DNA of 64,000 nt, from positions 9,079 through 73,078 of the forward strand of contig JAZRZY010000158.1 in the NCBI GenBank assembly GCA_045601605.1, given 5' to 3'. The DNA comes from Eubacteriales bacterium. GTDB taxonomy: Bacteria; Bacillota; Clostridia; Oscillospirales; SIG627. Both the position numbers and the translations under genes were made by a program. The notes under the pieces are model-generated. The model saw only the letters and a list, made by a program, of their open reading frames with translations. It was not told where the DNA came from and ran no database searches. Positions 5,402 through 44,749 of this stretch are shown in pieces. How positions within the stretch are numbered: position 1 is the stretch's first letter; the number at the start of each line of letters is the position of its first letter.

Positions 5402-6503
5402 GGCTTGTGTCAAATGGAAAACGTACCTCAAGCGTACCGGGATTTGTGTTTTATCCGCTCTGTTGTTTACCGTTGGTGCGGTTTATGTGTTTTTGTTTTC
5501 GGTCGTCAACGGCCCGAGTCCCTCCTTCCGCGATCGACTGGTGCTTTCCGCCTTGGAGGGGAGCGCGACCAAGTGGCTTCCGAACTTGTTTTTGAGTCAA
5601 GAGACCATTGATGCAATTTCTGCGGAAAGTCGATCCATCGCAACGGACACGTTGTCTATGGATGATTATGTTTCCGGTGATGCCGGCGCGGAGGAAACGG
5701 TCGACGAGTGGGCGGATTTTCCGGACGGCATCCGCATTGATACCGTCACCAAATCCACCTTTACGGCGTATGTTATGTTGGTTCAAGATCCTTCGCGCGT
5801 GTATCTTGGCCCCACCTATCATTATGCGAGTGCCTCCAGCGGCAAGCAGATCTTCCAGGCCGTGGAGATGGAAGGCGCGGTTGCCGCGATCAATGGCGGC
5901 GAGTTTTCCGATCTCGGCGGCGGCGGAAGCGGAGCACAGCCGATGGGGTTGACTTATTCAAAGGGCGCCTGTGTTTGGAACGACGGATATTACAGCACCT
6001 TTATGGGCTTTGATAAAGGCAACCGTTTCATCGTGAAAAACGGCATGACGAAAGAAGAAGCCGATCGTCTCGGTGTGCGCGACGGTTGCTCGTTTTGGGG
6101 ACAGGAAGGCGATAATATTCTCATCAGCAATGAAAACGGTGAGATCAGCTTCCATTATGCTACGGGAGATACTGCGGTTGCACAGCGTACCGCCATCGGT
6201 CAGCGTGCCGACGGTACGGTGATTATGGTGGTGACGGACGGACGCAGCGCTTCTTCCCTCGGCGCGACCCGAAACGACCTTGTCGATCTGTTCCGCGAAT
6301 ACGGAGCGGTAGTGGCGGGACGTCTTGACGGGGGCTCTTCCTCTATGATGTATCTGAAGGATTACGCCGAAAAGTATCATTTAGACGAGGAGTCTTTGAA
6401 CAATACGCAAAAGGAGGGTATGGTCAATAATTACAAAGCCTTTACCGGATACCGTTATATCCCCACTTACTTTATGGTTCGACCCGAGGAGGCCGCCAAA
6501 TGA
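5373..6503 (+). CDS. Phosphodiester glycosidase (NAGPA/DUF2233) family protein with N-terminal membrane anchor
   Basis: 376 aa. AAGGAG RBS sits 7 nt before the ATG, and the gene overlaps the upstream gene by 29 nt. One TM helix, then blocks AINGGEF and RLDGGSSSMMY typical of this family. Confidence 0.65.
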   Translation: MSKDSSMKNKACVKWKTYLKRTGICVLSALLFTVGAVYVFLFSVVNGPSPSFRDRLVLSALEGSATKWLPNLFLSQETIDAISAESRSIATDTLSMDDYVSGDAGAEETVDEWADFPDGIRIDTVTKSTFTAYVMLVQDPSRVYLGPTYHYASASSGKQIFQAVEMEGAVAAINGGEFSDLGGGGSGAQPMGLTYSKGACVWNDGYYSTFMGFDKGNRFIVKNGMTKEEADRLGVRDGCSFWGQEGDNILISNENGEISFHYATGDTAVAQRTAIGQRADGTVIMVVTDGRSASSLGATRNDLVDLFREYGAVVAGRLDGGSSSMMYLKDYAEKYHLDEESLNNTQKEGMVNNYKAFTGYRYIPTYFMVRPEEAAK

Positions 6504-7713: not shown

Positions 7714-7753
7714 AAAAAAGCACCCCATCGCGTTTGCGATGGGGTGCTTTCTT
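7714..7753. terminator. Bidirectional intrinsic terminator
   Basis: 12-bp stem GCACCCCATCGC/GCGATGGGGTGC (7720-7731/7736-7747) with loop GTTT. Flanked by an A-run upstream and TTTCTT downstream. Confidence 0.75.
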
Positions 7754-20385: not shown

Positions 20386-20392
20386 AAACGCA

Positions 20393-20554
20393 AGATAGAG
20401 GCGCTTTTGCGAAGAGTACTCCTGTTTCGGCAGTCCGTGCCTCGGACCGGAGAAAAGGCGTAAGAGCCGAAGAGCACAAGGCGGACGCTTGTGACTCTGG
20501 GCGTCAACCGAACAGGTTGCCGACTGTCACCGAAGGATCGGTGAAGGGCTATCT
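20393..20554 (+). promoter_or_regulatory. Lysine riboswitch (L-box) aptamer
   Basis: The conserved blocks occur in order: AGATAGAGGCGC, GAAGAGTA, GGAGAAAAGG, GCCGAAG, CTCTGGGCG, ACTGTCA. P1 pairs AGATAG 20393-20398 with CTATCT 20549-20554. It lies upstream of dapA-dapB. Confidence 0.8.
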
Positions 20555-20591
20555 ATGCGTAGCGGAAAGGCGAGGCTTTTGTCTTTCTCTT

Positions 20592-32180: not shown

Positions 32181-34118
32181 TTATTCTGCGGTTGTAGAAT
32201 CGTTTCCGTTCTCAAGGGAGGCGGAAGGGGACGAGTCCGGGTCTTCTTCGTCGGGAGTGTCATCGTCTTCGGAGGCTCCGTCTCCTTTTGCGTCTTCTTC
32301 GCTCGAAGCTTGTTCACCGGCTTCTTGAAGGCGCTTTTCTTCTTCCGCCAGGAAGGTCTCAAGAGAGCCTTCGCCGAAATAATGTTCGAAAACGGGGGTA
32401 TCTTGCAAAGCGCGCTTCATCGAAAGAGTCAAGTCAAAGAATGCGGGTTTTCCGAAGTCGGAGCTGGAGTTTGCTTGAATGTCTGCGGTGTCGCAGGAAG
32501 CGGAGTAGTTCAACTGCCCAATGAGCTTGATTTTTGAGGTCACATCACCTTCCGAAAGGGTGCGACGTTCCAAGCAAAGGCGCGTTTCTTTGGAGTTTAA
32601 CCGCTCGTTGGAAAGCAGGATGAGTTCGTCATTGTATTGGAGGCGCACTTTGCCGACGAAGGCGGATACGCCGCCGATGGAGGAACCTTTTTCCAGATCT
32701 GCGGAAATGGCAAGAAGGGTTTCTTCGCCGGCATCTGCGGAACGCTCGGCATCTGCCGCAAGGCGGGTTAAGGTGATATCGTGTTCACCCTCGGTTGCGG
32801 TGGAGGAGTCAATGTGGGTGAGGTGGTAAATCTCGTTGTTTGCTTCCAGGCGAACTTCAAGAATGTTCTCGTTGTCCCTGTGATAACGGAAACACTCAAA
32901 AACGGTCAGCGTTCCTTGTTTTAAGGAGCGTCCGATGAGATCGGTCCCTTGGTAATAGGCGGTGAGGCTGATTCCGTCAGACAGGATCAGGTCGTCGGCT
33001 TTTTCCGCGATGCGATCTGCCAAAAGATCTACGTAAGCTTGAACGTCCTGCTTTTCGGGGGAGGTGTTGAGTACGTAGAGGAGCGAACCTTCTTCGGGAA
33101 GGGTGTATTCGGGAACAAGGGCCAAAAGTTCGGTAAAGAGCGGGATTTGCTCCAGATCTTCATCGCTTAGGTTGAATTCGGCTGCAAAGTCGCGTCGGAA
33201 CTCGGCAGAGGCGGTAATGTAATTTGCGGTGTTTTGGATGATCTGAGCGAGCTTTGTGTCGCGCCGGATCATGGAGGAGAGTTGACGGATGACGTCTTTT
33301 GCCTGTTCCTCATTCAGCGTAAAGGTAACGGTGGAAACTTCGATTCCGTCAACGACTGCAAAGTCAAGTGTTTGCTCACTTTCATTTAATGCTTCAAGCA
33401 GCAGGGGTTGAAGGTAAGTGCCCACCCATTCGCTCAATTCTCGCGGGGTATATCCTGTGATGGTTTTCCAGGATGTGTTTCCGCCCTTGAAGGAATTTTG
33501 CAATGCGGCGGAAAATTTGGCGGCAACCACGCCATCCGTCATTTCGGGAAAACTGACGGAAATTTTTTCAGCAACCAGATTGGAGATCACCGTGCAGAAG
33601 ACTTCTTCTTCGTAAGCGGCGGAAAGTTTCAGTGAGGTGCTTTTTTGACCGTCTGTGGTGAGCGTGCCTTGAAGGTTGAGATCGGCAAGAAGAAGGCTGT
33701 AATCCTCGTACTCCTTGCCCTCTGTCTCAATTTTAAAGTTCCCGTTTATCGTTTTTCTCTGTGCTTCGACAATCGGTTTGCTCAGCGTTTCGACTGTGTC
33801 GGAAAATTTGCGTATTTCCTGAGCTTCACTTTCCAGATAATAGGCGGCAGGGGACATAAAAGACTGCTTAAAATGGGGCAGGAAGATCAAGGCGAGCGCT
33901 GCAACGAGAAGCAAGGCACCAAAGCAGACGAAGAGAATCCACTTTTTCTTGGTTGACAAGGGCACGGCGGGTACTTGCTCCGCATCGTTAAAATCTGCAG
34001 GCTGTGTGAAGGCCGTGGTGTGTGCCTCGGAAAGAAGTTTGGTTTTTTGGCGTTTTCCGCAGGCTCGGCAAAAGCGGTCGTCTGCGTGGATTTCAGCGCC
34101 GCAACGTTTGCAGGTCAT
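32181..34118 (-). CDS. Zinc-ribbon, single-pass membrane protein with large extracytoplasmic domain and acidic tail
   Basis: Start is ATG 34118, after AAAGGAG (MTCKRCGAEIHADDRFCRACG). One TM helix (WILFVCFGALLLVAALALIFL). About 520 aa with no motif I recognise. The C-terminus is Asp/Glu/Ser-rich. Confidence 0.55.
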   Translation of the reverse strand: MTCKRCGAEIHADDRFCRACGKRQKTKLLSEAHTTAFTQPADFNDAEQVPAVPLSTKKKWILFVCFGALLLVAALALIFLPHFKQSFMSPAAYYLESEAQEIRKFSDTVETLSKPIVEAQRKTINGNFKIETEGKEYEDYSLLLADLNLQGTLTTDGQKSTSLKLSAAYEEEVFCTVISNLVAEKISVSFPEMTDGVVAAKFSAALQNSFKGGNTSWKTITGYTPRELSEWVGTYLQPLLLEALNESEQTLDFAVVDGIEVSTVTFTLNEEQAKDVIRQLSSMIRRDTKLAQIIQNTANYITASAEFRRDFAAEFNLSDEDLEQIPLFTELLALVPEYTLPEEGSLLYVLNTSPEKQDVQAYVDLLADRIAEKADDLILSDGISLTAYYQGTDLIGRSLKQGTLTVFECFRYHRDNENILEVRLEANNEIYHLTHIDSSTATEGEHDITLTRLAADAERSADAGEETLLAISADLEKGSSIGGVSAFVGKVRLQYNDELILLSNERLNSKETRLCLERRTLSEGDVTSKIKLIGQLNYSASCDTADIQANSSSDFGKPAFFDLTLSMKRALQDTPVFEHYFGEGSLETFLAEEEKRLQEAGEQASSEEDAKGDGASEDDDTPDEEDPDSSPSASLENGNDSTTAE

Positions 34119-34149
34119 ACTGATCTCTCCTTTCTGCTTTTTTGATGTA

Positions 34150-34178
34150 ATTATATCATATTGTTCCTCGCGAGGCAA
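34150..34178 (-). promoter_or_regulatory. Promoter of the zinc-ribbon protein gene
   Basis: Minus strand reads TTGCCT (34178-34173), 17 nt, TATAAT (34155-34150). Confidence 0.45.
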
Positions 34179-34200
34179 GGGATTTGTGTTTTCTTTCGTG

Positions 34201-34229
34201 AAAAAACCGCCCTGAAAGGGCGGTTTTTT
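34201..34229. terminator. Bidirectional terminator
   Basis: AAAAAA, CCGCCC, TGAAA, GGGCGG, TTTTTT (stem 34207-34212/34218-34223). Confidence 0.65.
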
Positions 34230-34759
34230 CAATTCAGAATGGTGCGCTCCGGCAAGTTGATACGGGTAAATCCGATGTCAGAGGGTTCGGTAACGAAAAA
34301 GTGCGGGGGATCCATGGACGGGAGATCAACGGTGCCCTCTGCGTGGGCACAACCCTTCAGCACGGTAAAGAAGCTCAAATACGGGTCGTTGTAAACGCAT
34401 CTCATACAGAGAAAATCCTCTTCGCTGACCGTGTTCTCGGCAATTTTTTCTTCCAAAAGGGAAGGTTCGATGAGCGAAAAGAGCAAAAAGAGCGGTTTTT
34501 TTCCCTCTTTTTCGATAAGGAGAAATTCCTCGTTGTCTTCATGATAGCCAAAACAAGGGAAGTTGATTCCGGCGGCGGTAACGTAAATCATCATATGAGC
34601 GCCGCGCTCCGGCGAAGACTGATAAACGGTTGCCTGCCGATCAAGGTTGAGCTCGGGGTGCTTCTCCTTGATGTCCGGCGTCATACGCAGAATCAGACCG
34701 CGCTTTTCCAGAAGCTCCAAAACCTCCTCGGATGCATCGACGGGCTTAAATCTCAGCAT
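34229..34759 (-). CDS. Hypothetical cytoplasmic protein
   Basis: Start is probably ATG 34759 (MLRFKPVDASEEVLELLEK), overlapping the upstream gene end. No motif recognised and no TM helix. Confidence 0.5.
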   Translation of the reverse strand: MLRFKPVDASEEVLELLEKRGLILRMTPDIKEKHPELNLDRQATVYQSSPERGAHMMIYVTAAGINFPCFGYHEDNEEFLLIEKEGKKPLFLLFSLIEPSLLEEKIAENTVSEEDFLCMRCVYNDPYLSFFTVLKGCAHAEGTVDLPSMDPPHFFVTEPSDIGFTRINLPERTILN

Positions 34760-35213
34760 GTTTTTTCTCCGTTCTTTCAATCATTTCATCCAAGATCTCG
34801 GCGGCATCCATTACAAATTTTAAGCAGGGGCGCGAATGATAATATTCTTTGGTGCGTTCGTCGGGGATCGGGGAGCGATCGGTGTTGAGATTTTCCAAAA
34901 GCTCACGGCAGAGGATGGTGTTGTTTTTTTCTTTGAATCGTTCTGCAATTTCCTGTATGCGTGCGTAATGCTCTTTCTTTTCGTTTTGATCATCGGGAGA
35001 GGTGTATCCAAAGAGGAGCCCTGCGACCATAAATGCTCCGCTTACTGCACCGCACACTTCACGCATACGTCCCATGCCGCCACCGAACGAGGAGGAAAGG
35101 CGCAGTGCCGTATCTTCGGGAAGCCCGGTTACGTCGCCAAAGGCGGCAACAACGGATTGGGAACAATTGTATCCTTTCAAAAAATAATCGCGTGCAAGTT
35201 GGGCGTGGGTCAT
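34746..35213 (-). CDS. C_GCAxxG_C_C family protein
   Basis: 155 aa containing GYNCSQSV, the signature EVCGAVSGAFMV and a later LCRELL cysteine. Confidence 0.75.
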   Translation of the reverse strand: MTHAQLARDYFLKGYNCSQSVVAAFGDVTGLPEDTALRLSSSFGGGMGRMREVCGAVSGAFMVAGLLFGYTSPDDQNEKKEHYARIQEIAERFKEKNNTILCRELLENLNTDRSPIPDERTKEYYHSRPCLKFVMDAAEILDEMIERTEKKHAEI

Positions 35214-35287
35214 AAAAGCCTCCGAGGTTGTTTTTTTAATATCATATCACTCTTTAAAATCGGAATCAAGTCGATTTAAAAAAAGAC

Positions 35288-35315
35288 TTTGAAAAAAACG
35301 AGAATTGCGATATAA
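35288..35315 (+). promoter_or_regulatory. Promoter of the U32 gene
   Basis: TTGAAA (35288-35293), 16 nt, TATAAT (35310-35315). Confidence 0.45.
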
Positions 35316-35338
35316 TAGTGTAACTAAGTGAGGTATTT

Positions 35339-37393
35339 ATGAAACGTCCCGAGATACTCAGTCCGGTTGGAAACCGCGAAATGTTGGAGGCGGCGGTGCG
35401 CGCAGGCGCAGATGCCGTCTATTTCGGCATGAGCGATTTTAATGCCAGACGAAATGCACAAAATTTCACGAATGAGGAGTTTTGTGAGGCGGTCGCTTAT
35501 TGTCACGTGCGCGGAGTTCGCGCCTATCTCACGTTGAATACGCTTGTTTCGGATGCAGATATGCAACGCGCGCTTCGCCAAGCCGCCTTTGCTTATGAAA
35601 GCGGAATCGACGCCGTCATCGTGCAGGATCTCGGTTTGGCGCGAATGCTTCGACGCTGCTTGCCCGATTTGCCGTTACACGCTTCCACACAAATGACGGT
35701 TCATTCTCCGAGCGCACTTCCGATTTTGAAAAAACTCGGATTTGTACAAGTTGTTCTCTCCCGTGAAATGAGCCGTGAGGAGATCCGTGCGTTTTGCGTT
35801 GAGGCGAACAAATATGGGATCGCAGTCGAGGTTTTCGTACACGGCGCGCTTTGTATGTGTATGTCGGGGCAATGTTATCTCTCGGCCGTGCTTGGCGGTC
35901 GAAGCGGGAACCGAGGCCTTTGCGCCGGTCCTTGCCGTTTACCATTCTCTGCGTCGAAAAAAGTAGGATACGACCTCAGTCTCAAGGATTTGAGTCTTGT
36001 GGATCATCTCGGTGATCTGGCGGCGCTCGGTGTTTCCAGTTTTAAAATTGAAGGTCGTATGAAACGGCCTGAGTATGTGGCGGCGGCGACCTATGTCTGT
36101 TGTGCATCTCTTGAGGGGAGACCGTGTGAAGAGTGGAAAGAGGCGCTTGCCAAGGTGTTTTCCAGAAACGGTTTTACCGATGGATATTACAGCGGCCATA
36201 CGGGCCGCGAGATGTTCGGCGTGCGCGGGATCGATGCGCTACAGGCTTCCGCTTCCGTTTTTTCAAAGCTGCATGAGCTATACCGCGCCGAACGACAAAG
36301 CGTCGCACTTTCTGCCGTTCTTTCACTTGCGGTCGGGCGCGAGGCGGAGTTGAAGGTCTCTGACGGAAAGAACACCGTTTTAGTAAAGGGACCCCTTTGC
36401 CGCAGGGCAGAGGGCAGAGCCTTGGAACGCGAAAGCGTGGAATCAAAGCTTGCGCGCACCGGCAACACGCCTTTCTGCTTTGAAACGATTGAAACAGAGT
36501 TGGAAGCAGACGCCTATCTCAGTGTTTCCGAACTGAACGCAATGCGTAGGGAGGCGCTGGAACGGATTTCTGCGGCGCGCAGTGTGAGCTGTCGGCCTCG
36601 CGTGGACCTCGCGTCGGCTTGCGTGAAGACCGAGGGTATGATGCGTAGGGAGCGGAAAACGGCGAAGCCGATCGCTCGGTTTTCGAGTCTTATCCAGATC
36701 CCGCGAAATTTAGAAGGTCTTGCCGCCGTTGTCGTGCCGCTGGAAAGCTCGTTTGAAAAGCTGAAGCTTGCGGTTCCGTTGATCGTGGACGTTCCGCGGG
36801 GTATCACTTCGGAACGAGCGATTTTCGAACGATTACAGGAAGCGCATAAATTCGGAGTTCGTGCGGCCTTTTGCGGAAATTTAGCGGCCTGCCGATTGAT
36901 CTGTGAAGCGGGTCTGGAGCCGATCTTTGATTTTTCGATGAACCTGTTTTCCTCGTATGCGCTTGCATGTGCCGAAGCGCTGGGGGCGCGTGCTTCCGTA
37001 TTGTCCTTCGAATTAAAGCAACAGCAGATCAATGCATCTTGTGCAGAGTCTTACGTGGGCATTTATGCGTATGGTCGTCTTCCTCTGATGCTGATGCGAA
37101 ATTGCCCCGTGCAAAACGCCAAAAAATGCAAGGAGTGCGACCGTTCCCCTTCGCTGACCGATCGCAAAGGGAAGGAGTTCCCGGTGCGCTGTCGGGCGGG
37201 ATACAGTGAACTTTTCAATTCCGCACCGCTTTGGATTTTGGATAAAACAGATGATTTTTGCGTGGATTTTCACGTTTTGTATTTTACGACGGAAAATGCC
37301 CGTGAGTGTGAAAAAGTTTTGGAGGCCTATCGGACTTCAAGAGCTCCGAAGGGGAATTTCACACGTGGACTGTATTATCGCGGAGTGGAATAA
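35339..37393 (+). CDS. Peptidase U32 family protein (long form with C-terminal extension)
   Basis: 684 aa. The N-terminus PEILSPVGNREMLEAAVRAGADAVYFG and the blocks RAYLTLNT and EVFVHGALCM are typical of the U32 family. Confidence 0.8.
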   Translation: MKRPEILSPVGNREMLEAAVRAGADAVYFGMSDFNARRNAQNFTNEEFCEAVAYCHVRGVRAYLTLNTLVSDADMQRALRQAAFAYESGIDAVIVQDLGLARMLRRCLPDLPLHASTQMTVHSPSALPILKKLGFVQVVLSREMSREEIRAFCVEANKYGIAVEVFVHGALCMCMSGQCYLSAVLGGRSGNRGLCAGPCRLPFSASKKVGYDLSLKDLSLVDHLGDLAALGVSSFKIEGRMKRPEYVAAATYVCCASLEGRPCEEWKEALAKVFSRNGFTDGYYSGHTGREMFGVRGIDALQASASVFSKLHELYRAERQSVALSAVLSLAVGREAELKVSDGKNTVLVKGPLCRRAEGRALERESVESKLARTGNTPFCFETIETELEADAYLSVSELNAMRREALERISAARSVSCRPRVDLASACVKTEGMMRRERKTAKPIARFSSLIQIPRNLEGLAAVVVPLESSFEKLKLAVPLIVDVPRGITSERAIFERLQEAHKFGVRAAFCGNLAACRLICEAGLEPIFDFSMNLFSSYALACAEALGARASVLSFELKQQQINASCAESYVGIYAYGRLPLMLMRNCPVQNAKKCKECDRSPSLTDRKGKEFPVRCRAGYSELFNSAPLWILDKTDDFCVDFHVLYFTTENARECEKVLEAYRTSRAPKGNFTRGLYYRGVE

Positions 37394-37427
37394 AAAAGAG
37401 CCGAATGAAAGCATTCGGCTCTTTTTT
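37392..37427. terminator. Bidirectional terminator
   Basis: Stem GAGCCGAATG, loop AAAG, stem CATTCGGCTC (37398-37421), flanked by AAAAAA and TTTTTT. Confidence 0.75.
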
Positions 37428-37435
37428 CTTTGGGC

Positions 37436-38632
37436 TTAGGCAAAACAAATAACCAGGATCTGTGCGGCAAATACAATGGTGATAAGTGCCATTGGATAGA
37501 TGGTGGCATAGGCGGTTGCGACTTCTTCCAACTTTGATACGTGAATGAGTGCGCCGAGGGCGGGGGTGCTGGTCATACCGCCGGAGATTGCACCGAGGTT
37601 TGCCAAAAGGGGCAATTTAAGCACATACTTTGCAAAGAGAAAACCGACGGTCAAGGGCAAAAGCGTCATTGCAAGGCCGTAAAGGAAGTAGATCGGTTTG
37701 AAGTACTGCAGAAATGCGGCGCCGCCGGGGATGCCCGCGCCGATCAAGAAAAGCAACAGGCCGAGTTCACGAAAGACCTTCAAGGTTTGTTCGGTGGGTA
37801 CCAGTGCAAATTTACCGATTCTTCCGATGTGCCCCAGCAAGATGGAAACAAACAGACAACCGCCCGTTGTCGTGAGAGAAAACTTTCCGATCATGATTTG
37901 GCCAAGCAAGATCCCGAGCGCGCCCGTCAAAACGAAGGACGTGATGCCGAGCGGGTCTATGTGCTTTAACTTTTTGTCGTTTTCGGCATTTTTGCGAGTC
38001 GGAAGTGTTGACAAAAAGAGTTCGCGTTCCTGTTTCATATCTGCGTGCAAGACGGTGGGGATCAGTTGAATGAACAACACTTTGCCTACCACGCCGCCTA
38101 AATAAGCAATGGCATTTCCGACTGTGACCAAATTGACGAGATCTTCGCCAAAGGATTCAACGGTGCTTTTGGCGGCAGAAAACGCAGGAGTTGAAGTGAC
38201 GGCACCGGAGTAAAGCCCCGCAACGATAGCGGTGGTTTCGGTGGGCTGTTTTGAGTATTCGGGGGAGGTGAGAAGAAACAGGGCGGCTGTGAGCGCGCCG
38301 GTGAGTACAATGATCAGACACAACGGGGCGTATTTTTTCAGATTGATTTTCAAACTACGGAAAAAGGTGGGGCCTGCCAGAAATCCGACGGAGGAAACAA
38401 AGAGGATCAGCCCCAAGTTTTCCACGATTTTCAGCCCGTCCTTTGCGTAACCGCCGGTGGCGGAATCGAGCTGGTCGAAAAAGAAAATGCCGTAGAGAAC
38501 GGCGATAATCAAGACGCCTGCGGTCCCCAAAGATACGCCGCGCACTTTGATGTGGCCGAACAGATAGCCGAGCGTGGCGACGATCAGCAGGGAAAAGAGA
38601 AGAAAGCTGACACCGGTGATGGAAAAGGACAT
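37436..38632 (-). CDS. Aspartate:alanine-exchanger (AAE; YidE/YbjL-like) family transporter without TrkA-C domains
   Basis: True start is ATG 38632, after AAGGAG (MSFSITGVSFLLF). There are two homologous halves, each with a GxxxGxxGxxF-type loop. The track ORF carries a spurious 76-codon extension. Confidence 0.7.
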   Translation of the reverse strand: MSFSITGVSFLLFSLLIVATLGYLFGHIKVRGVSLGTAGVLIIAVLYGIFFFDQLDSATGGYAKDGLKIVENLGLILFVSSVGFLAGPTFFRSLKINLKKYAPLCLIIVLTGALTAALFLLTSPEYSKQPTETTAIVAGLYSGAVTSTPAFSAAKSTVESFGEDLVNLVTVGNAIAYLGGVVGKVLFIQLIPTVLHADMKQERELFLSTLPTRKNAENDKKLKHIDPLGITSFVLTGALGILLGQIMIGKFSLTTTGGCLFVSILLGHIGRIGKFALVPTEQTLKVFRELGLLLFLIGAGIPGGAAFLQYFKPIYFLYGLAMTLLPLTVGFLFAKYVLKLPLLANLGAISGGMTSTPALGALIHVSKLEEVATAYATIYPMALITIVFAAQILVICFA

Positions 38633-38660
38633 ATTTGCTCCTTGGAATTGATTTCGACCT

Positions 38661-38689
38661 ATTATAACAAAGAAGTAAAAGAAATGCAA
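38661..38689 (-). promoter_or_regulatory. Promoter of the AAE transporter gene
   Basis: Minus strand reads TTGCAT (38689-38684), 17 nt, TATAAT (38666-38661). Confidence 0.5.
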
Positions 38690-38690
38690 T

Positions 38691-38720
38691 AAAAAGCCCG
38701 ACCCGATTTTCTCGGGTCGG
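38691..38720 (-). terminator. Terminator of the Cys-rich protein gene
   Basis: Stem CCGACCCGA/TCGGGTCGG (38698-38706/38712-38720), followed on the minus strand by GCTTTTT. Confidence 0.65.
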
Positions 38721-38726
38721 TAAAAG

Positions 38727-39605
38727 TTATTGATAATCGCCGGGGTCAAGCGCGGGGTCAAGTCCGATGCGGTCGTTGGAAAGATCCAGCTCGTTGCACT
38801 GGGGTGTGGGAGCAAACTCCTCGTACGGAAATTGCATGGAGCTGAAGAGTGTGCAAGCATCCGTAAACACGCCGGAAGAGTTGCAGGTCTTGTCGGGGAA
38901 GCAGTTCTCGCTGTTGTCCATCATCAGCTGAGCGGGGCGTTCCACGCGGATGATGGTAAAAATGCCGACGGTTACATATGCGGATTGGGTGATCTCCACT
39001 TCGGCGTCGAAACTGCCTTCGAACTGTGCCGCGATCTCTTCCGGGAGATTTTGACAGCAGAGAGGAGTGTCGTCTTCGCCGCTTTCGCGTAGATTTACCT
39101 CAAGCCCGACGGGGGTGGCAATTTCTGTCACGACACGCGGAGCGCTGCTGCGTCCGATGCTTTGATTGAAGTCGGGGATCGCAGAGCAGAAATTCTGCTG
39201 GTTGTCCGAATAATAGACGGAGACAGTTCCTTCGCCGCCGTAGAGAATGACGTTTTTGTCATAGCAGGCAAGACCTGCGATGATTTGCGGTGTGGTTCCA
39301 AGACCCTGGCACACCTCCAACGTAATGCGGAAGTAGTAGCGAACGGTGATGCTGTAATAACCGGTTCGGAAGGGAACCTCCTCCGATAAAATGCGTACCC
39401 AAAGCACGCTGATGTCGCGAATTCGCACTGCGCTTGCGGTATTTAAAATGGTTTGATATACATCGGTGGTGCAGAAGCGCAGATTCCTCAGGCATTCCTG
39501 TCCGATGCAGGAATCATAAATTCGGTAAGTGTCCACGCAACAGGTGCATTCGCGTCTGCAACGGTCGTTTGCGGGGCAGTTGTGAGTGGCGAAATGATCG
39601 TTCAT
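38727..39605 (-). CDS. Cysteine-rich hypothetical protein (no signal peptide, no TM)
   Basis: 292 aa with about 17 Cys, clustered at the N-terminus (HNCPANDRCRRECTCCVDTYRIYDSCIGQEC) and C-terminus (CFPDKTCNSS...C...C). It has its own terminator. No family recognised. Confidence 0.55.
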   Translation of the reverse strand: MNDHFATHNCPANDRCRRECTCCVDTYRIYDSCIGQECLRNLRFCTTDVYQTILNTASAVRIRDISVLWVRILSEEVPFRTGYYSITVRYYFRITLEVCQGLGTTPQIIAGLACYDKNVILYGGEGTVSVYYSDNQQNFCSAIPDFNQSIGRSSAPRVVTEIATPVGLEVNLRESGEDDTPLCCQNLPEEIAAQFEGSFDAEVEITQSAYVTVGIFTIIRVERPAQLMMDNSENCFPDKTCNSSGVFTDACTLFSSMQFPYEEFAPTPQCNELDLSNDRIGLDPALDPGDYQ

Positions 39606-39692
39606 GCCGTTTTATCCTTTCTATCCATGTAAGGCGTTGCATTAGCAGAATATGCATCGCGGAAAAAAGTGCCAAAGATTTTAAAAAAGTCC

Positions 39693-39721
39693 TTGACAAT
39701 TTTCGAAATGGATAGTATAAT
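39693..39721 (+). promoter_or_regulatory. tRNA-Ala promoter
   Basis: TTGACA (39693-39698), 17 nt, TATAAT (39716-39721), 12 nt before the tRNA 5' end. Confidence 0.65.
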
Positions 39722-39733
39722 CTCAATGTTTTC

Positions 39734-39809
39734 GGGGCATTAGCGCAGCTGGGAGCGCACAACACTGGCAGTGTTGGGGTCAGGGGTTCGAATCCCCTAT
39801 GCTCCACCA
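39734..39809 (+). tRNA. tRNA-Ala (anticodon GGC)
   Basis: 76-nt cloverleaf folded by hand. Acceptor GGGGCAT/ATGCTCC carries the G3:U70 Ala identity pair. Anticodon loop is CTGGCAG, T-loop is TTCGAAT, and CCA is encoded. Confidence 0.92.
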
Positions 39810-39815
39810 GAAAAG

Positions 39816-39857
39816 AAACCTCTTTTGTCTACCAAGACAAGAGAGGTTTTTGTTTTC
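39816..39857 (+). terminator. tRNA-Ala terminator
   Basis: 15-bp stem AAACCTCTTTTGTCT/AGACAAGAGAGGTTT (one G-U pair), loop ACCA, then TTGTTTT. Confidence 0.75.
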
Positions 39858-39859
39858 TG

Positions 39860-39887
39860 TTGAGAAATGCATGGTTTGTGGTATAAT
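39860..39887 (+). promoter_or_regulatory. Orphan near-consensus promoter
   Basis: TTGAGA (39860-39865), 16 nt, TATAAT (39882-39887), with an extended -10 TGg. Confidence 0.55.
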
Positions 39888-39893
39888 GAATTC

Positions 39894-40120
39894 TATAAAT
39901 AAGAATTTGCTGGTCAAATTTCACTCTACCAGTGGTTTACATCTCCTCACTAAACCGATTGGTGGAGTTTCAGGTTCTGATCCCGCTTGCACAGCCCAAA
40001 GCAAGCACGGAAAACAAGTAAGCGTTCCGGCATACGGTATCAATTGACCACACCTTCTGGGTTGAATGCTCCTTCAGGCAACCGCCTCTCGCCGTGAGGC
40101 GGTTGCCTTTTTATTTTTTT
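39894..40120 (+). ncRNA. Candidate small RNA of about 220 nt (family unknown)
   Basis: Bounded by its own promoter and a very strong terminator, with no ORF that has an RBS. A hairpin at 39933-39957 has loop CAUCUCCUCAC. A second hairpin lies at 39985-40006. Unpaired CUCCUU lies at 40069-40074. Confidence 0.4.
40077..40120 (+). terminator. Strong intrinsic terminator
   Basis: 12-bp stem GGCAACCGCCTC/GAGGCGGTTGCC (40077-40088/40096-40107), followed by TTTTTATTTTTTT. Confidence 0.85.
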
Positions 40121-40130
40121 CGAATTTCGG

Positions 40131-40159
40131 TTGCCATTTCACCGCCTTTGTGATATACT
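40131..40159 (+). promoter_or_regulatory. Promoter of the FMN riboswitch-ribU transcript
   Basis: TTGCCA (40131-40136), 17 nt, TATACT (40154-40159). Confidence 0.55.
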
Positions 40160-40164
40160 GAATA

Positions 40165-40290
40165 CAGTTTCAGGGCGAGGTGAAATTCCTCACCGGCGGA
40201 GAAGACCTGTCAGGTATAAGTCCGCGAGCGCGATGGCGCAGATCGGGTTTGAATCCCGAACCGACGGTATAGTCCGGATGTGAGAAACTG
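40165..40290 (+). promoter_or_regulatory. FMN riboswitch (RFN element)
   Basis: P1 pairs CAGTTTC 40165-40171 with GAAACTG 40284-40290. Conserved blocks are AGGGCGAGGTGAAATTCCTCACCGGCGG, AGTCCGCGAGC, GGGTTTGAATCCCGAACCGACGGTATAGTCCGGATG and GAGAA. Confidence 0.9.
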
Positions 40291-40344
40291 TCTTTTTTCG
40301 CCCGGAGACTCTCCGAGGCTATTTTTATTTGTGAGGAAATTCTT

Positions 40345-40914
40345 ATGCGTATGAAGGAATCGGTTCGTAAACTTTGCGTTTTGGGTATCTTGGCTGCGTT
40401 GTCCGTCGTTTTGGTGCTCGCGGTTCGTTTCTCCGTGATTCCGATCGCTCCGTGGCTCGAATACGATGCCGGAGATGTGGCAATCATTACGGGTTCTCTT
40501 TTGTTCGGCCCTTTTTCCGGCGTTCTCTTGACGCTTGTCGCATCCGCGATCCAGGCGCTGACCGTTAGTTCCGAGAGCGGTTTTTGGGGTTTTGTAATGC
40601 ATTTTGTTTCCACGTCTGCTTTTTGTTTGACCGTCGGTGCGTTCTATCGGAAACGTCCGACGATGAAAAGCGCCGTGCTTGGAATGATCGTTGGTGTTTT
40701 GGGTACGACACTTTTGATGATCCCGTTAAATATTTTCATTACGCCTCTGTTTTCTGCCGGTACCACCCCCGCTGATGTGGCCGCGCAGATCCTCAGCGTG
40801 ATCATTCCGTTTAATCTTATTAAATTTTCTTTGAATGCCGTGATCTCATTTTTACTTTGGCGTTCCTTGAAAATGCTTTTGGAAAAACTTTGGGGGAAGA
40901 ATGAGTTGCGCTGA
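40345..40914 (+). CDS. ribU: ECF-transporter S component for riboflavin
   Basis: 189 aa with five or six TM helices. It lies directly behind the FMN riboswitch and has a GAGGA RBS. Confidence 0.8.
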   Translation: MRMKESVRKLCVLGILAALSVVLVLAVRFSVIPIAPWLEYDAGDVAIITGSLLFGPFSGVLLTLVASAIQALTVSSESGFWGFVMHFVSTSAFCLTVGAFYRKRPTMKSAVLGMIVGVLGTTLLMIPLNIFITPLFSAGTTPADVAAQILSVIIPFNLIKFSLNAVISFLLWRSLKMLLEKLWGKNELR

Positions 40915-41308
40915 ACTGTCTTTTCAATTGAGCGGAGTCGTTGTTCACGGCAACGAGAAGGGCAGAGAACTGGGGTTTCCGACTGCCAATGTTCCGTTGT
41001 CGGACGATCTTGCGATCCCTTCGGGCGTTTACGTATCGCGCTTATCTGATGCGGAGGGCTTCGCCGCTTGGGGTGTGACAAATGTAGGAGTCCATCCGAC
41101 GCTCGGTTCCAATTCAAGCATCTTGAGCGAAACATATTTGTTTTGTGATGCGGTTGACCTTTACGGGAAAAACGTGACTGTGGAACTTTTTGATTTTTTG
41201 CGCGACGAAAGGAAGTTTGAGAGCGCAGATCATTTAATGCTGCAGATCCAAAAGGACATCCAAACTGCAAAGGAACTCTTGGGGATTGAAAAAGCGCCTG
41301 TCAAATGA
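40901..41308 (+). CDS. Monofunctional riboflavin kinase domain protein
   Basis: 135 aa. Contains GVVVHGNEKGRELGFPTANV and ETYLF...LYGKNVTVELFDFLRDERKF blocks of the RibF C-terminal kinase domain, with no FAD-synthetase domain. Overlaps ribU by 14 nt. Confidence 0.75.
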   Translation: MSCAELSFQLSGVVVHGNEKGRELGFPTANVPLSDDLAIPSGVYVSRLSDAEGFAAWGVTNVGVHPTLGSNSSILSETYLFCDAVDLYGKNVTVELFDFLRDERKFESADHLMLQIQKDIQTAKELLGIEKAPVK

Positions 41309-41322
41309 CAGGCGCTGTCGCT

Positions 41323-41571
41323 TTATTCGGAGAGTGCTTGTGATAAGGCTTCCGCCAACTGATCGGGACAGGAGGTTGGTTTAAACCCGCATCGGATGCC
41401 GCGTAGTCGTTTGATGACTTCGTTTGCATCGGAACCCTCAACAAGCTTTGAAATACCCTGGAGGTTTCCGTGGCACCCGCCGCGGAAGGTGACGTTGGTG
41501 ACGATGTTGTCATTCAAATCAAATTCAATCAGGGCAGAGCAAGTGCCGTGTGTTTTATAAGAAAAATGCAT
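41323..41571 (-). CDS. TSCPD-domain small protein (four-Cys family)
   Basis: Start is ATG 41571 (MHFSYKTHGTCSALIEF...RGGCHGN...CGFKPTSCPDQLA), 82 aa. The track ORF extends 30 codons into tRNA-Val and that extension is rejected. Confidence 0.65.
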   Translation of the reverse strand: MHFSYKTHGTCSALIEFDLNDNIVTNVTFRGGCHGNLQGISKLVEGSDANEVIKRLRGIRCGFKPTSCPDQLAEALSQALSE

Positions 41572-41590
41572 AAAATCTTTCCCTTCTGTC

Positions 41591-41619
41591 TTGACAAGAG
41601 CAGATTTGTTTGTTATACT
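41591..41619 (+). promoter_or_regulatory. tRNA-Val promoter
   Basis: TTGACA (41591-41596), 17 nt, TATACT (41614-41619). Confidence 0.6.
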
Positions 41620-41631
41620 ACCTAGGCGCTC

Positions 41632-41708
<77 letters not shown>

Positions 41709-41711
41709 ATT

Positions 41712-41739
41712 TCGACAGGCAAATGCCTGTCGATTTTTT
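41712..41739. terminator. Bidirectional terminator
   Basis: Stem TCGACAGGC, loop AAAT, stem GCCTGTCGA (41712-41733), then TTTTTT. It overlaps the stop codon of the convergent gene. Confidence 0.7.
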
Positions 41740-42745
41740 ATTTCGCCAGAATGTTCAGTTCCCGGAGACGGGAAAGGAAGTGAGTCACGTCTTCTTCGGC
41801 TGTGTTGATTTGGATCTCATATTCTGCGGATAAGGCGCGAATAAGTTCTTCTTTGGTGGCGCCGCATTCCAACATTTTGAACAGGAAAACGCCGGTTTCA
41901 TTCAGGGTCGTAAGGCCGATAAAATTGCTGTCATCTTGGCAGGCGATGATGTTGCTGCCTGCTTTGATACAGAGAGAATAGCCTTCGCGGATATTGAATG
42001 CAGTTCGATTTGGATCACTGCAGACGTTGGCGATCGGACGGTTCATAGTCGATTCCGCTAAGACGGCGGCATCGGTGCTGATGTTGCACTTGAGGCGATA
42101 GATCGGCACCAAACCGAGCAGCTCGGACAATTCGTCGGAAAGCATATCCAGATCATCGTCGGGAAGCCGACGAAGCGTTTGCGAGAACAGATTGGGAAGT
42201 GCTTCGCGCGAGGAGATCTTTTCGATGGAGTTTTCCTCCGCGCGCTCCAAAAAACAAATGCCCGCGAGCGGAACGCCGATTGGAATGCTGATGTCGTGCT
42301 TGCCGCTCCAGGGAGTTCCGAAGGCATAGATGGTATCGCCAATGCGACGGATTGCGGGCTTGTCGTCGTTTAGGATGCGCACGCGATCGTGACCGAAGTG
42401 ATTTTGCCAAAGTGCGGTGTGGGTGGATTTGCCTGTGCCGGAAGGTGCAGAAAACAGAAATGCACGCGCCTGATAGAGTACCGCAGATGCGTGTAACATA
42501 TAGCCGTTGAAACGGATCAAGGCGCGATAAAATGCGGTTGCGGAAAGAATGTACTCCCACTCATCGTCGGGGAGAGTGGGGTTGTGAACGCGGGCGGCGG
42601 CAATTTCTTCCTTTGAGACCGAAATGCTGAAATCGGGTGTCAAAGGCTCATCCGTTAAATAAGGCTCTGCTTGTTTGGCAGTGCGTCCTCCGCAATTCAT
42701 TTCAACCACGAGGTCTGCGATAAGATACTTTGGCATTTTGGACAT
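41738..42745 (-). CDS. HPr-kinase-like P-loop domain fused to a C-terminal PqqD-like (RiPP recognition element) domain
   Basis: 335 aa with Walker A FSAPSGTGKSTHTALW in an HprK-related context. The last ~85 aa read LNETGVFLFKMLECGATKEELIRALSAEYEIQINTAEEDVTHFLSRLRELNIL, a PqqD-family signature. The call rests on motifs only. Confidence 0.55.
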   Translation of the reverse strand: MSKMPKYLIADLVVEMNCGGRTAKQAEPYLTDEPLTPDFSISVSKEEIAAARVHNPTLPDDEWEYILSATAFYRALIRFNGYMLHASAVLYQARAFLFSAPSGTGKSTHTALWQNHFGHDRVRILNDDKPAIRRIGDTIYAFGTPWSGKHDISIPIGVPLAGICFLERAEENSIEKISSREALPNLFSQTLRRLPDDDLDMLSDELSELLGLVPIYRLKCNISTDAAVLAESTMNRPIANVCSDPNRTAFNIREGYSLCIKAGSNIIACQDDSNFIGLTTLNETGVFLFKMLECGATKEELIRALSAEYEIQINTAEEDVTHFLSRLRELNILAK

Positions 42746-42871
42746 CCTTTCGAATCATTAAAAAAATTATATCACGAAAGTCTCAAAAAAGCAACCGAGC
42801 AAGATTTTGTACTTTACTTTTATTTCGATTTTTGTTATAATTAGTCAAACAAAAGGGAAGAAGGTATCGTT

Positions 42872-43501
42872 ATGAAAAATGTTACTGTTTTTGACCATCC
42901 GTTGATTCAGCATAAGATCTCAATTTTGCGCGACAAGAACACGGGTACCAATCAGTTCCGCGAGTTGATCGAGGAGATCACCGTTTTGATGGGGTATGAG
43001 GTTCTGCGCGATCTTCCGCTGAGCGACGTTCCCGTCAGCACCCCTATGGGAGAGACCATTGGCAAGGAAATTGCCGGAAAGAAATTGGCAATCGTTCCGA
43101 TTTTGCGTGCCGGCCTCGGTATGGTCGGCGGTATGACGACTCTCGTGCCCTCTGCTCGCGTCGGTCATATCGGCCTTTATCGTGACCATGAAACCTTAGA
43201 ACCTCACGAATATTACTGCAAGCTCCCTCCGATGCTTGAGGAGCGCTTGATCATTCTTTTGGATCCGATGCTTGCAACCGGCGGAAGCGCTGCGGCTGCT
43301 GTCAGTTTTATCAAGCAGCACGGCGGAAAGAATATTAAGTTTATGTCGATCATTGCCGCGCCCGAAGGGATCGAACGCCTTGCGAGCGAGCATCCAGACG
43401 TTGAGATCTACTGTGGTTGCAAGGATGAAAAACTCAATGAGATCGGTTACATTGTTCCGGGCCTCGGCGATGCCGGTGACCGCATTTTCGGCACCAAGTA
43501 A
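42872..43501 (+). CDS. upp: Uracil phosphoribosyltransferase
   Basis: 209 aa containing [19 protein letters not shown] and [12 protein letters not shown]. Confidence 0.92.
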
Positions 43502-43511
43502 GAAAACTTCA

Positions 43512-43540
43512 GCCCCCGAAATTCGGGGGCTTTCTTTTTT
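43512..43540 (+). terminator. upp terminator
   Basis: Stem GCCCCCGAA/TTCGGGGGC followed by TTTCTTTTTT. Confidence 0.75.
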
Positions 43541-43585
43541 GTGAAGCAAAGCCCGCCCGCAACATTTGCGGGAGGGCTTGGTTTA

Positions 43586-44749
43586 TCAAACGGCGTTTCC
43601 GTCGATCCAAACGCTTTTTACGGTTGTAAAGAAGTCAAAGGGATCTCCGGAATATAGCGCAAAGTCGGCATCCATACCGACTTGTAAGGAGCCGATTTGT
43701 TTTTCCAGACCGAGTAGTTTGGCAGGCGTTGAAGTGACGGCGGCAAGAGCTTCGCCGCGGCTCATCCCTGCCTTGTGTGCAAGCGCGGCAGAGAGCAGGA
43801 GATATTGTTGGGGCAGCTCCGGATGGTCGGTAATGATGGCAACGGAGATGCCCTTTTCGCGGAGGATTGCCGCATTTCGATCGGTTTCGTTTGCGAGCTC
43901 CGGCTTGGATCGAGAGAGGAAAAAAGGACCGAGAAAAGCGGGAACCTGTGCTTTTGCAATCACTTCGGATACCAGATGCCCCTCCGTGCAATGAACCAAG
44001 CGGCAATCGAGATTAAATTCCTTTGCAATGCGGAGTGCGGTGCAGATGTCGTCAGCGCGATGGGCGTGGAAATGTGCTTGTGTCTGGCGCTTTAACACAG
44101 GCAACAGCGCCTCGCATTTTGCGTCATACTCCGGCGGGGAATTCTCTTCCGGATCGGCTTCATATTCAGACAGGTCGTCCAAATAGCGTTTTGCTTTGTA
44201 AAGCGCCTCGCGGATCAAAGCGGCAGAGGCCATACGCGTTTCGGGACCTCCGTTTTTTTGGTGATAACAGCTTTTGGGATTCTCACCAAGTGCAAATTTC
44301 ATGGCAAGGGATTCTTTTACCAGCATCTCGTCGGCGCAGATTCCGCTTGTCTTGACAGCGGAAAGCGTGCCGCCGATGGTGTTGGCACTGCCCGGGCCGG
44401 TGAGCACGGTAGTTACACCGGCTTGCCGAGCTTCCTTGAAACCGCGGTCGAAGGGGTGGATTGCATCCAGAGCGCGCATTTGGGGTGTGACGGGGTCTGA
44501 ATCCTCGTTGACGTCGTCGCCTTCGAATCCGAGCGAATCCCCGATCATACCGAGGTGGCTGTGTGCATCGATGAGACCGGGTAACAAAACGGCGCCTTCA
44601 GCGTCGATTGCTCCGTCTTCCATTGCATCGGGGCTTCCTTTTCCGAGGGCGGTGATCGTTTTGCCGTTCCAGGAAATCCAACCGTTAAAATGATAGTCGG
44701 GTTCGTCGGCGCGATCCATGGGATAAATGTTAGCGTTGTAGATCTGCAT
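43586..44749 (-). CDS. Amidohydrolase-superfamily metal-dependent hydrolase
   Basis: 387 aa containing PGLIDAHSHLG, HFHAHR and a late DADF block. Confidence 0.7.
   Translation of the reverse strand: MQIYNANIYPMDRADEPDYHFNGWISWNGKTITALGKGSPDAMEDGAIDAEGAVLLPGLIDAHSHLGMIGDSLGFEGDDVNEDSDPVTPQMRALDAIHPFDRGFKEARQAGVTTVLTGPGSANTIGGTLSAVKTSGICADEMLVKESLAMKFALGENPKSCYHQKNGGPETRMASAALIREALYKAKRYLDDLSEYEADPEENSPPEYDAKCEALLPVLKRQTQAHFHAHRADDICTALRIAKEFNLDCRLVHCTEGHLVSEVIAKAQVPAFLGPFFLSRSKPELANETDRNAAILREKGISVAIITDHPELPQQYLLLSAALAHKAGMSRGEALAAVTSTPAKLLGLEKQIGSLQVGMDADFALYSGDPFDFFTTVKSVWIDGNAV

Follow-up and report, generated by a model that had tools for sequence, protein, structure and literature searches.

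What is the non-coding stretch that separates a tRNA-Ala gene from the FMN-ribU (riboflavin transporter) operon in an uncultured Clostridia bacterium: a regulatory RNA gene, and if so of what age and with what target, or something that merely resembles one? The stretch lies in the same orientation as ribU within the window, by which we mean the whole 64-kb piece of DNA that was analysed, and a preliminary description had seen in it a self-contained transcription unit that could produce a structured small RNA (sRNA) of about 220 nt with exposed anti-Shine-Dalgarno motifs. The explanation that we prefer, with a probability of about 0.45, is that the unit is a young, lineage-specific and independently transcribed non-coding RNA of ~220 nt, which would extend from ~39895 to ~40115; its transcription, its action in trans and its target are what we infer. 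In the following, we present the signals and the predicted fold of the unit, its origin as judged from syntenic relatives, the one homolog of its main hairpin and its candidate targets, and we weigh other explanations as the evidence that bears on them is introduced.

A Promoter-to-Terminator Unit Upstream of ribU

The features of the locus are collected in Table 1. As the preliminary description had it, a near-consensus promoter and an intrinsic terminator enclose a self-contained unit, the body of which, ~180 nt in length, is not assigned a coding gene by any gene caller, and a promoter and terminator of its own around a non-coding body are what is expected of the gene of a trans-acting base-pairing sRNA. 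The promoter that had been proposed is confirmed in position and sequence, including its TG extension. The terminator had been called the strongest in the window; it is indeed strong (-26.5 kcal/mol), and in a scan of the whole window it ranks second, after the hairpin at 7717-7750 (-28.3 kcal/mol). The latter hairpin is bidirectional. Promoter-like sites are more frequent than expected in the 1.4-kb neighbourhood (8 observed, compared with 1.4 expected from shuffled sequences), and the top three of this region on the + strand are the promoters of tRNA-Ala, of the unit and of ribU. The unit has a GC content of 44%, compared with 51% for the window.

Table 1. Features of the unit and of its flanks (positions are those of the window).
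Feature	Position	Strand	Remarks
tRNA-Ala(GGC)	39734-39809		Upstream flank of the unit
Sigma-A-type promoter TTGAGA-16-TGgTATAAT	39860-39887	+	11/12 consensus positions plus TG extension
Predicted 5' end with A/U-rich 5' tail	39895-39908	+	Transcription start site (TSS) ~39895, placed from the -10 position
Predicted closing long-range helix	39908-39917 / 40044-40052	+	In MFE and centroid folds
Predicted 17-bp hairpin with one bulged G and 11-nt loop CAUCUCCUCAC (39940-39950)	39923-39939/39951-39968	+	z = -3.3 alone
Predicted second hairpin, GCUUGC/GCAAGC core (39985-39990/40001-40006), loop ACAGCCCAAA	39981-40011	+	Loop P(unpaired) 0.93
Second anti-SD-like stretch GAAUGCUCCUU	40064-40074	+	P(unpaired) 0.64
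Intrinsic terminator: 13-bp stem (9 GC pairs), 7-nt loop, then TTTTTATTTTTTT	40076-40120 (stem-loop 40076-40108)	+	
ribU promoter TTGCCA-17-TGaTATACT	40131-40159	+	Between the unit terminator and the FMN aptamer
FMN riboswitch	40162-40293		111.9 bits (Rfam); downstream of the unit, before ribU
ribU translation-initiation region GUGAGGAAAUUCUUAUG	40331-40347	+	Candidate target

Predicted Fold

Folding of 39893-40120 gives a minimum free energy (MFE) of -78.2 kcal/mol (z = -5.5), and of -51.1 kcal/mol (z = -3.1) when the terminator is left out. The RNA would fold into a multi-branched structure dominated by the 17-bp hairpin in its 5' half, which would display the CAUCUCCUCAC loop with a P(unpaired) of 1.00, in agreement with the earlier claim of an exposed CUCC-type loop. 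Three elements that had been folded by hand, namely a 7-bp hairpin, the GCTTGC/GCAAGC hairpin and a long-range helix, all recur in the MFE fold, the first of them as the apex of the 17-bp hairpin. A second motif, CUCCUU at 40069-40074, had been taken to be unpaired just 5' of the terminator; its position stands, and it is partly rather than fully unpaired (P 0.63), sitting in a weakly structured 3' segment. The 10-mer of the 5' tail (39899-39908), which is considered below in connection with ribU, is predicted to be partly base-paired (P(unpaired) 0.39).

Syntenic Relatives and the Origin of the Insert

Among 185k reference genomes, the nearest relatives of RibU are 39-44% identical (Clostridiaceae, Butyricicoccaceae and Fastidiosipila MAGs) and all lack the unit, and the best match in 5.8 billion proteins, besides the window's own, reaches 59%. 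Four distinct syntenic relatives were compared (L007, L008-L010, L011 and L020-L025), and all four keep the gene order Peptidase_U32, 290-aa gene, tRNA-Ala, FMN-ribU, flavokinase, PqqD-domain gene and UPRTase. The unit is absent from all four, though the tRNA-Ala gene and the FMN riboswitch are kept. In L008-L010 (RibU 59%) and L020-L025 (RibU 48%) the spacer is empty, the ribU promoter directly abutting the tRNA terminator, while ~95 unrelated nt separate the two in L007 (RibU 57%). The spacer of L011 (RibU 59%) holds a different insert of ~310 nt with two inverted copies of Gut-1 RNA (RF01706), with scores of 54.3 and 49.4 bits (the gathering score is 50). A terminator-like hairpin that follows these copies was read by eye, and was not reported by the automated terminator scan. 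Since the spacers of the relatives are either empty or variously filled, the ancestral spacer was empty and the site is a hot spot where small non-coding sequences become inserted; since the relatives keep the flanks without the unit, the unit is a lineage-specific insertion. According to the reading that we prefer, ~250 bp of foreign or novel sequence would have entered the short gap that separated the tRNA-Ala terminator from the ribU promoter, and would lie behind a promoter of the ribU type.

The ribU promoter is conserved in L007, L008 and L011, where it was aligned, and in L020, where it was read directly. The position that it occupies in the relatives, directly 3' of the tRNA terminator, is taken in the window by the promoter of the unit (...ttttctgTTGAGA in the window, ...aaattctgTTGCAC in L008). 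The -10 region of the unit, TTTGTGGTATAATGAAT, is identical to that of the window's ribU promoter, TTTGTGATATACTGAAT, at 15 of 17 positions, a score reached by 1 of 500 shuffles and inflated by the promoter consensus that the two share. The spacers between -35 and -10 differ in the two promoters, and the unit promoter aligns with the ribU promoters of the relatives. These observations would fit an insertion with partial duplication of the ribU promoter, and the promoter that drives the unit would then be an apparent copy of the ribU promoter. At the borders of the insert, GAATTT...ATTTCAC occurs on both sides, and these direct repeats, only 6- and 7-mers, were judged not significant; neither terminal inverted repeats nor a target-site duplication are apparent on reading the boundaries of the unit, and no second copy of it was found in the 64-kb window. 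With regard to mobile elements of the MITE, REP or IS200-605-derived kinds, the count is a single copy in the window and one partial copy in another organism.

A Homologous Hairpin in a Distant Contig

The partial copy came from a metagenome scan with the 21-mer GTTTACATCTCCTCACTAAAC, a query for which a chance match is conceivable in so large a collection. The scan returned one contig, JAEIGA010661374.1 (L013), with a length of 1648 bp and a GC content of 38%, compared with the 51% of the window. At positions 1519-1568 of L013, the apex of the 17-bp hairpin is found unchanged over 23 nt, loop included; on its 5' side CTACC is kept, and on its 3' side 15 of 18 aligned positions are identical (GGTGGAnTTTCAG). 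Because the flanks also agree, the match represents real homology rather than a chance 21-mer. The homology spans ~39919-39976 (~58 nt) and ends there, the remainder of the unit having no counterpart, and no homolog of the second hairpin (39981-40011) was found. Full-length homologs of the unit were found neither in RibU-anchored loci of the 185k genomes nor in the syntenic contigs, phages, plasmids, viral contigs or the metagenome scan, and blastn against phage and plasmid collections, as well as a search of IMG/VR, gave no match to the unit. The single match from six viral-contig pattern scans (L012) was rejected as a chance coding match.

When the hairpin is compared pair by pair with that of L013, 12 of the 17 pairs counted are invariant, two carry double-sided changes (A-U to U-A and U-A to C-G), one a single-sided change (G-U to A-U), and two basal pairs are broken in L013; all three variable stem pairs keep their pairing. 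The covariation, from two sequences, is not significant (137 of 500 shuffles). The search for homologs and covariation thus yielded one hairpin of ~58 nt, no full-length relative and no significant covariation. A new family of conserved structured RNA is not indicated by these data, the unit as a whole being absent from the four syntenic relatives and its hairpin alone recurring, once.

The surroundings of the hairpin in L013 differ from those in the window. It lies ~105 nt downstream of an HNH-like gene of 302 aa, which has weak matches to HNH and DUF6508, and the contig also carries Gut-1 arrays. Six further contigs with HNH-like genes that are 83-87% identical (L014-L019) lack the hairpin, and hence the hairpin is not linked to this gene. 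On its other side, the end of the L013 hairpin overlaps the -35 position of a promoter-like site (TGaTATACT), which is followed by a Shine-Dalgarno sequence, GGAGAGGAGG, and, 25 nt downstream of the promoter-like site, by an ORF starting MDQIKIGKFIA and cut by the end of the contig; we take this start to be the N-terminus of an XRE-type HTH protein.

Nearly as likely as the young sRNA is the explanation that the unit is non-functional insertion debris, that is, a foreign or mobile fragment at a tRNA-adjacent hot spot that has no selected RNA function, any transcription of which would follow from the (duplicated) promoter upstream and the terminator that it carries. The absence of the unit from the four syntenic relatives and an ancestral spacer without content agree with this explanation, as do the other inserts that the same spacer has received (95 nt in L007, and the Gut-1 pair with the terminator-like hairpin in L011), the low GC content of the unit relative to the window, and the fact that its sole homologous piece resides in a 38%-GC contig in the company of Gut-1 arrays and of HNH-like and XRE-like genes, surroundings like those of a mobile element. 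In addition, the perfect 17-bp and 13-bp stems suggest youth and have the look of young, unselected inverted repeats, which speaks against the reading that we prefer. On the other hand, the boundaries reveal neither terminal inverted repeats nor a target-site duplication, the window contains no second copy, and phage and plasmid collections contain no match. The promoter and the terminator are both near-optimal, which would be unexpected in random debris, and in two organisms that differ in GC content 23 nt of apex and loop have stayed the same, with co-variation in the lower stem.

The position of the L013 hairpin over the -35 of a likely promoter also counts against the preferred reading, since a role at the level of DNA becomes possible. 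The hairpin could then be a protein-binding palindrome, e.g., the operator of an XRE-type repressor, in which case the sRNA would be incidental. We consider this improbable. The half-sites GGTTTA/TAAACC are symmetric, and the palindrome of L013 ends over the -35 of the TGaTATACT site upstream of the XRE-like ORF, as an operator might. The best conserved part, however, is an asymmetric 11-bp centre, whereas the outer arms vary and yet stay complementary, and a lower stem that co-varies beneath an unchanging, asymmetric apex and loop is what one would expect to see in an RNA hairpin and not in a protein operator. Moreover, Pfam scans of ten flanking ORFs (32181-44749) detected no XRE/HTH regulator adjoining the unit, and the hairpin in the window is located 28 nt inside the predicted transcript and not over the promoter.

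Candidate Targets

If the unit is functional, the most likely mode of action would be base-pairing that occludes ribosome-binding sites. The 5' tail at 39899-39908, AUAAGAAUUU, is a perfect 10-nt complement of ribU positions 40337-40346, AAAUUCUUAU, in which the AU of the AUG is included; there are 33 such 10-mers in the window, corresponding to a chance of ~0.7% per 36-nt start region. The bases UCCUCAC of the hairpin loop (39944-39950) are complementary over 7 nt to GUGAGGA of the ribU Shine-Dalgarno sequence (40331-40337), and the two complementarities (7 + 10 nt) jointly form a contiguous 16-nt site in ribU, from the SD into the AUG. Loop and tail together may therefore cover the ribU site and add an sRNA layer over the control by the FMN riboswitch.

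A whole-RNA duplex scan (RNAduplex) of the window did not single out ribU, long unrealistic duplexes being dominant, and a seed-level screen that covered the start regions of 72 ORFs took its place. In this screen, ribU ranks first for the tail with -9.5 kcal/mol, the runner-up reaching -5.9 kcal/mol. For the loop of the first hairpin, at least five start regions of the window give better scores than ribU does; anti-SD loops have matches in many start regions. A different pairing would join GAAUGCUCCUU (40064-40074) over 11 nt, without mismatch, to AAGGAGCAUUC (5360-5370), which closely precedes the ORF 5373-6503 for a NAGPA-domain protein; this duplex (-17.6 kcal/mol) ranks first of the 72, and may have arisen by chance, since strong SDs are matched by any anti-SD motif. 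As regards conservation of the seed, the loop is unpaired and identical in the single homolog, a comparison of two sequences with a generic anti-SD motif, and the syntenic relatives have neither the sRNA nor the window's ribU spacer sequence. Within the window, the ribU start region is the best candidate target, and ribU targeting as such is a lead that appears unlikely, if less so than the fuller scenario that follows.

In that scenario, which is decidedly doubtful, the ~58-nt hairpin would be a horizontally mobile RNA module common to distant Firmicutes that has come to lie behind a duplicated ribU promoter, giving rise to a new sRNA gene, the RNA of which would occlude the adjacent ribU mRNA from the SD to the AUG by its loop and 5' tail jointly. 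Were it true, the birth of an sRNA would have been caught in the act, layered on the control of riboflavin uptake by the FMN riboswitch. The preferred reading would itself offer a clear and datable birth of an sRNA gene, provided that the unit is transcribed and active, since the empty ancestral site is preserved in the relatives. The promoter would apparently have been borrowed from the neighbouring operon, and the candidate target would be the next gene, which is already controlled by a riboswitch. An active unit would help in the study of the emergence of new regulators, and no general concept would be changed by it.

Leader, Member of a Known Family or Small Protein

The proximity of the unit to ribU also invites a reading in cis, according to which it would be a leader, such as a tandem riboswitch or an attenuator, that governs read-through into FMN-ribU. 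The unit has the orientation of ribU, is situated immediately upstream of it and has a terminator at its end like the expression platforms of riboswitches. Against this, a separate and conserved ribU promoter stands between the terminator and the aptamer, and this predicted promoter (40131-40159) shows that FMN-ribU has its own transcription start downstream of the unit, while the relatives regulate ribU without any such element. Inspection found no antiterminator alternative to the 13-bp terminator, no riboswitch model matches, and the body is unlike the FMN aptamer, so that we regard a cis-acting leader as very improbable. The sharing of AGTTTCAGG and ACGGTAT had prompted a comparison with a degenerate copy of the FMN riboswitch, which was rejected with a local alignment score of 23, compared with a shuffle mean of 23.5.

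A similarly small likelihood attaches to the idea that the unit is a diverged member of a known family, i.e., 6S, raiA-motif or another Rfam RNA, that the models have missed. The preliminary description, unable to match the sequence to any family, had left 6S and raiA-motif RNAs open. With Rfam 15, only FMN, lysine and two tRNAs reach the gathering score in the whole window, the unit being unmatched, and a whole-window scan at E<0.01 adds nothing; in 39800-40170 (371 nt), the 6S, raiA, Gut-1 and all riboswitch models give no match even at E<=10. The best sub-threshold match is ctRNA_pT181 (RF00242) with 29.3 bits, its gathering score being 56, and it involves essentially the terminator hairpin alone. 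The unit shares with 6S RNA (RF00013) and raiA-motif RNA the ~200-nt size class, the free-standing gene and the occurrence in Firmicutes, here in a poorly sampled Clostridia lineage. However, 6S RNA is a rod with paired ends and a large central bubble, whereas the fold of the unit is multi-branched with a strong local hairpin, and a housekeeping RNA would occur in the syntenic relatives or be widely conserved, while the unit is absent from the former. A Ro/Y-RNA-like identity, considered because of the T-arm-like GGUUCUGAUCC, was rejected as well, there being no Ro60 gene nearby and no Rfam match.

Least probable of all is that the unit encodes a small protein, for although there is an 82-codon frame (39799-40047), with other frames of 29-53 codons, and a 3-nt indel relative to L013 preserves the frame across the hairpin, the long frame begins within tRNA-Ala and traverses a terminator and the unit promoter, the internal ATG at 39886 falls within the -10 box and precedes the predicted TSS, and the similarity to L013 stops at the borders of the hairpin and is not protein-like on either side. 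No start codon of the unit's ORFs is preceded by a Shine-Dalgarno sequence, and none of the nine candidate ORF products is present as a called gene in a collection of 15 billion proteins, in which a neighbouring 292-aa gene from the same contig is present; the earlier view that the unit has no credible coding frame is borne out as far as it is testable.

Comparison with Similar Systems

Like the unit, ctRNA_pT181 has two hairpins, the second of which is a GC-rich terminator with a U tail, but the unit has no plasmid context and no plasmid match by blastn. The description of Gut-1 RNA (RF01706) comes exclusively from metagenomes of the human gut (Weinberg et al. 2010, PMC2864571). Gut-1 RNA resembles the unit in being a small non-coding insert in the same tRNA-Ala/ribU spacer, namely that of L011, and differs in its architecture, in which 9-nt repeats separate the short hairpins of an array, and in that its model does not match the unit.

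Firmicutes contain several trans-acting sRNAs that occlude ribosome-binding sites, including RsaE/RoxS, the hairpins of RNAIII in S. aureus and the streptococcal csRNAs. The unit is like these in having its own sigma-A promoter and terminator, in being non-coding and in presenting a pyrimidine-rich anti-SD hairpin loop. Their motif, however, is CCCC or UCCC, whereas that of the unit is CUCCUC, in a multi-branched RNA of ~220 nt; there is no homology in sequence or structure, none of their Rfam models matching at E<10, and these sRNAs are kept across a genus or family, whereas the unit is found in a single genome. Set beside them, the unit is a modest candidate for an unclassified sRNA, that is, an object of a known kind from a single uncultured Clostridia genome, of interest at the level of annotation. 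What it may contribute to the comparison is an evolutionary snapshot, in which a site that is empty in relatives is seen together with a promoter that was apparently borrowed, a candidate target next to the unit and a hairpin common to a distant organism.

Strand features of the unit and its neighbours

The candidate sRNA of about 220 nt lying between the tRNA-Ala terminator and the ribU promoter carries, within its 5' end, a promoter-like sequence on the minus strand (TTGACC-16-TAGAAT, 10/12, window 39890-39917). Its predicted product would be a short antisense RNA running over the unit's own promoter and toward the terminator of tRNA-Ala, a hairpin flanked by T-rich sequence in both directions. 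Throughout the window, 10-mers complementary to the RNA of the unit number 26 on the plus strand versus 7 on the minus strand, an excess that is probably an effect of composition or strand bias.

The gene adjoining tRNA-Ala (38727-39605, minus strand) encodes a cysteine-rich protein of 292 aa that had no match in Pfam and has a 290-aa counterpart in L007 and L020, both syntenic relatives; the gene is lineage-specific and uncharacterised. Between the flavokinase gene and tRNA-Val, relatives possess a TSCPD-domain gene of 82-83 aa on the minus strand (see table), and its counterpart in the window (region 41309-41631) is the listed ORF 41323-41661, of 112 aa, which begins with GTG and overlaps tRNA-Val, and whose real start probably lies downstream of that codon. 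Elsewhere in the window, a lysine riboswitch (RF00168, 91.9 bits) occupies 20388-20559 on the plus strand and has no relation to the unit.

Gut-1 RNA in the tRNA-Ala/ribU spacer of L011

In the syntenic relative L011, the same tRNA-Ala/ribU spacer that holds the unit in the window is occupied by two copies of the Gut-1 RNA motif (RF01706; L011:43-214), inverted relative to each other and scoring 54.3 and 49.4 bits against a gathering score of 50. Each copy is made up of short hairpins with GATGAAATC repeats between them, which GATTTCATC repeats mirror. The paper by Weinberg et al. (2010; PMC2864571) presents Gut-1 as known solely from human-gut metagenomes, its host not being known; in L011 the motif is on a Clostridia contig, flanked by a tRNA gene on one side and by an FMN riboswitch on the other.

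Gut-1-type arrays beside HNH-like genes

Gut-1-type hairpin arrays also occur on L013, the metagenomic contig with the sole homolog found for the unit's hairpin of about 58 nt, and on two further contigs, L015 and L016.

Coordinates of Gut-1-type arrays and TSCPD-domain genes
Feature	Location	Strand
Gut-1-type hairpin array	L013:170-345	
Gut-1-type hairpin array	L015:1110-1300	
Gut-1-type hairpin array	L016:95-290	
TSCPD-domain gene	L007:4982-5233	minus
TSCPD-domain gene	L008:1298-1549	minus
TSCPD-domain gene	L020:3487-3735	minus

Directly downstream of the arrays on several contigs lie a promoter (CCGCCGTCCTATTTACTT...TATGATATAAT) and an HNH-like/DUF6508 gene of about 300 aa, and the 3' side of these loci bears short repeats of the CACGATAT type and the recurrent motif CTCGAAGAGATAA. 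The passages considered from the main text of the 2010 paper (PMC2864571) contain no mention of an association between Gut-1 and an HNH nuclease. The loci look like a small mobile HNH element bearing Gut-1.
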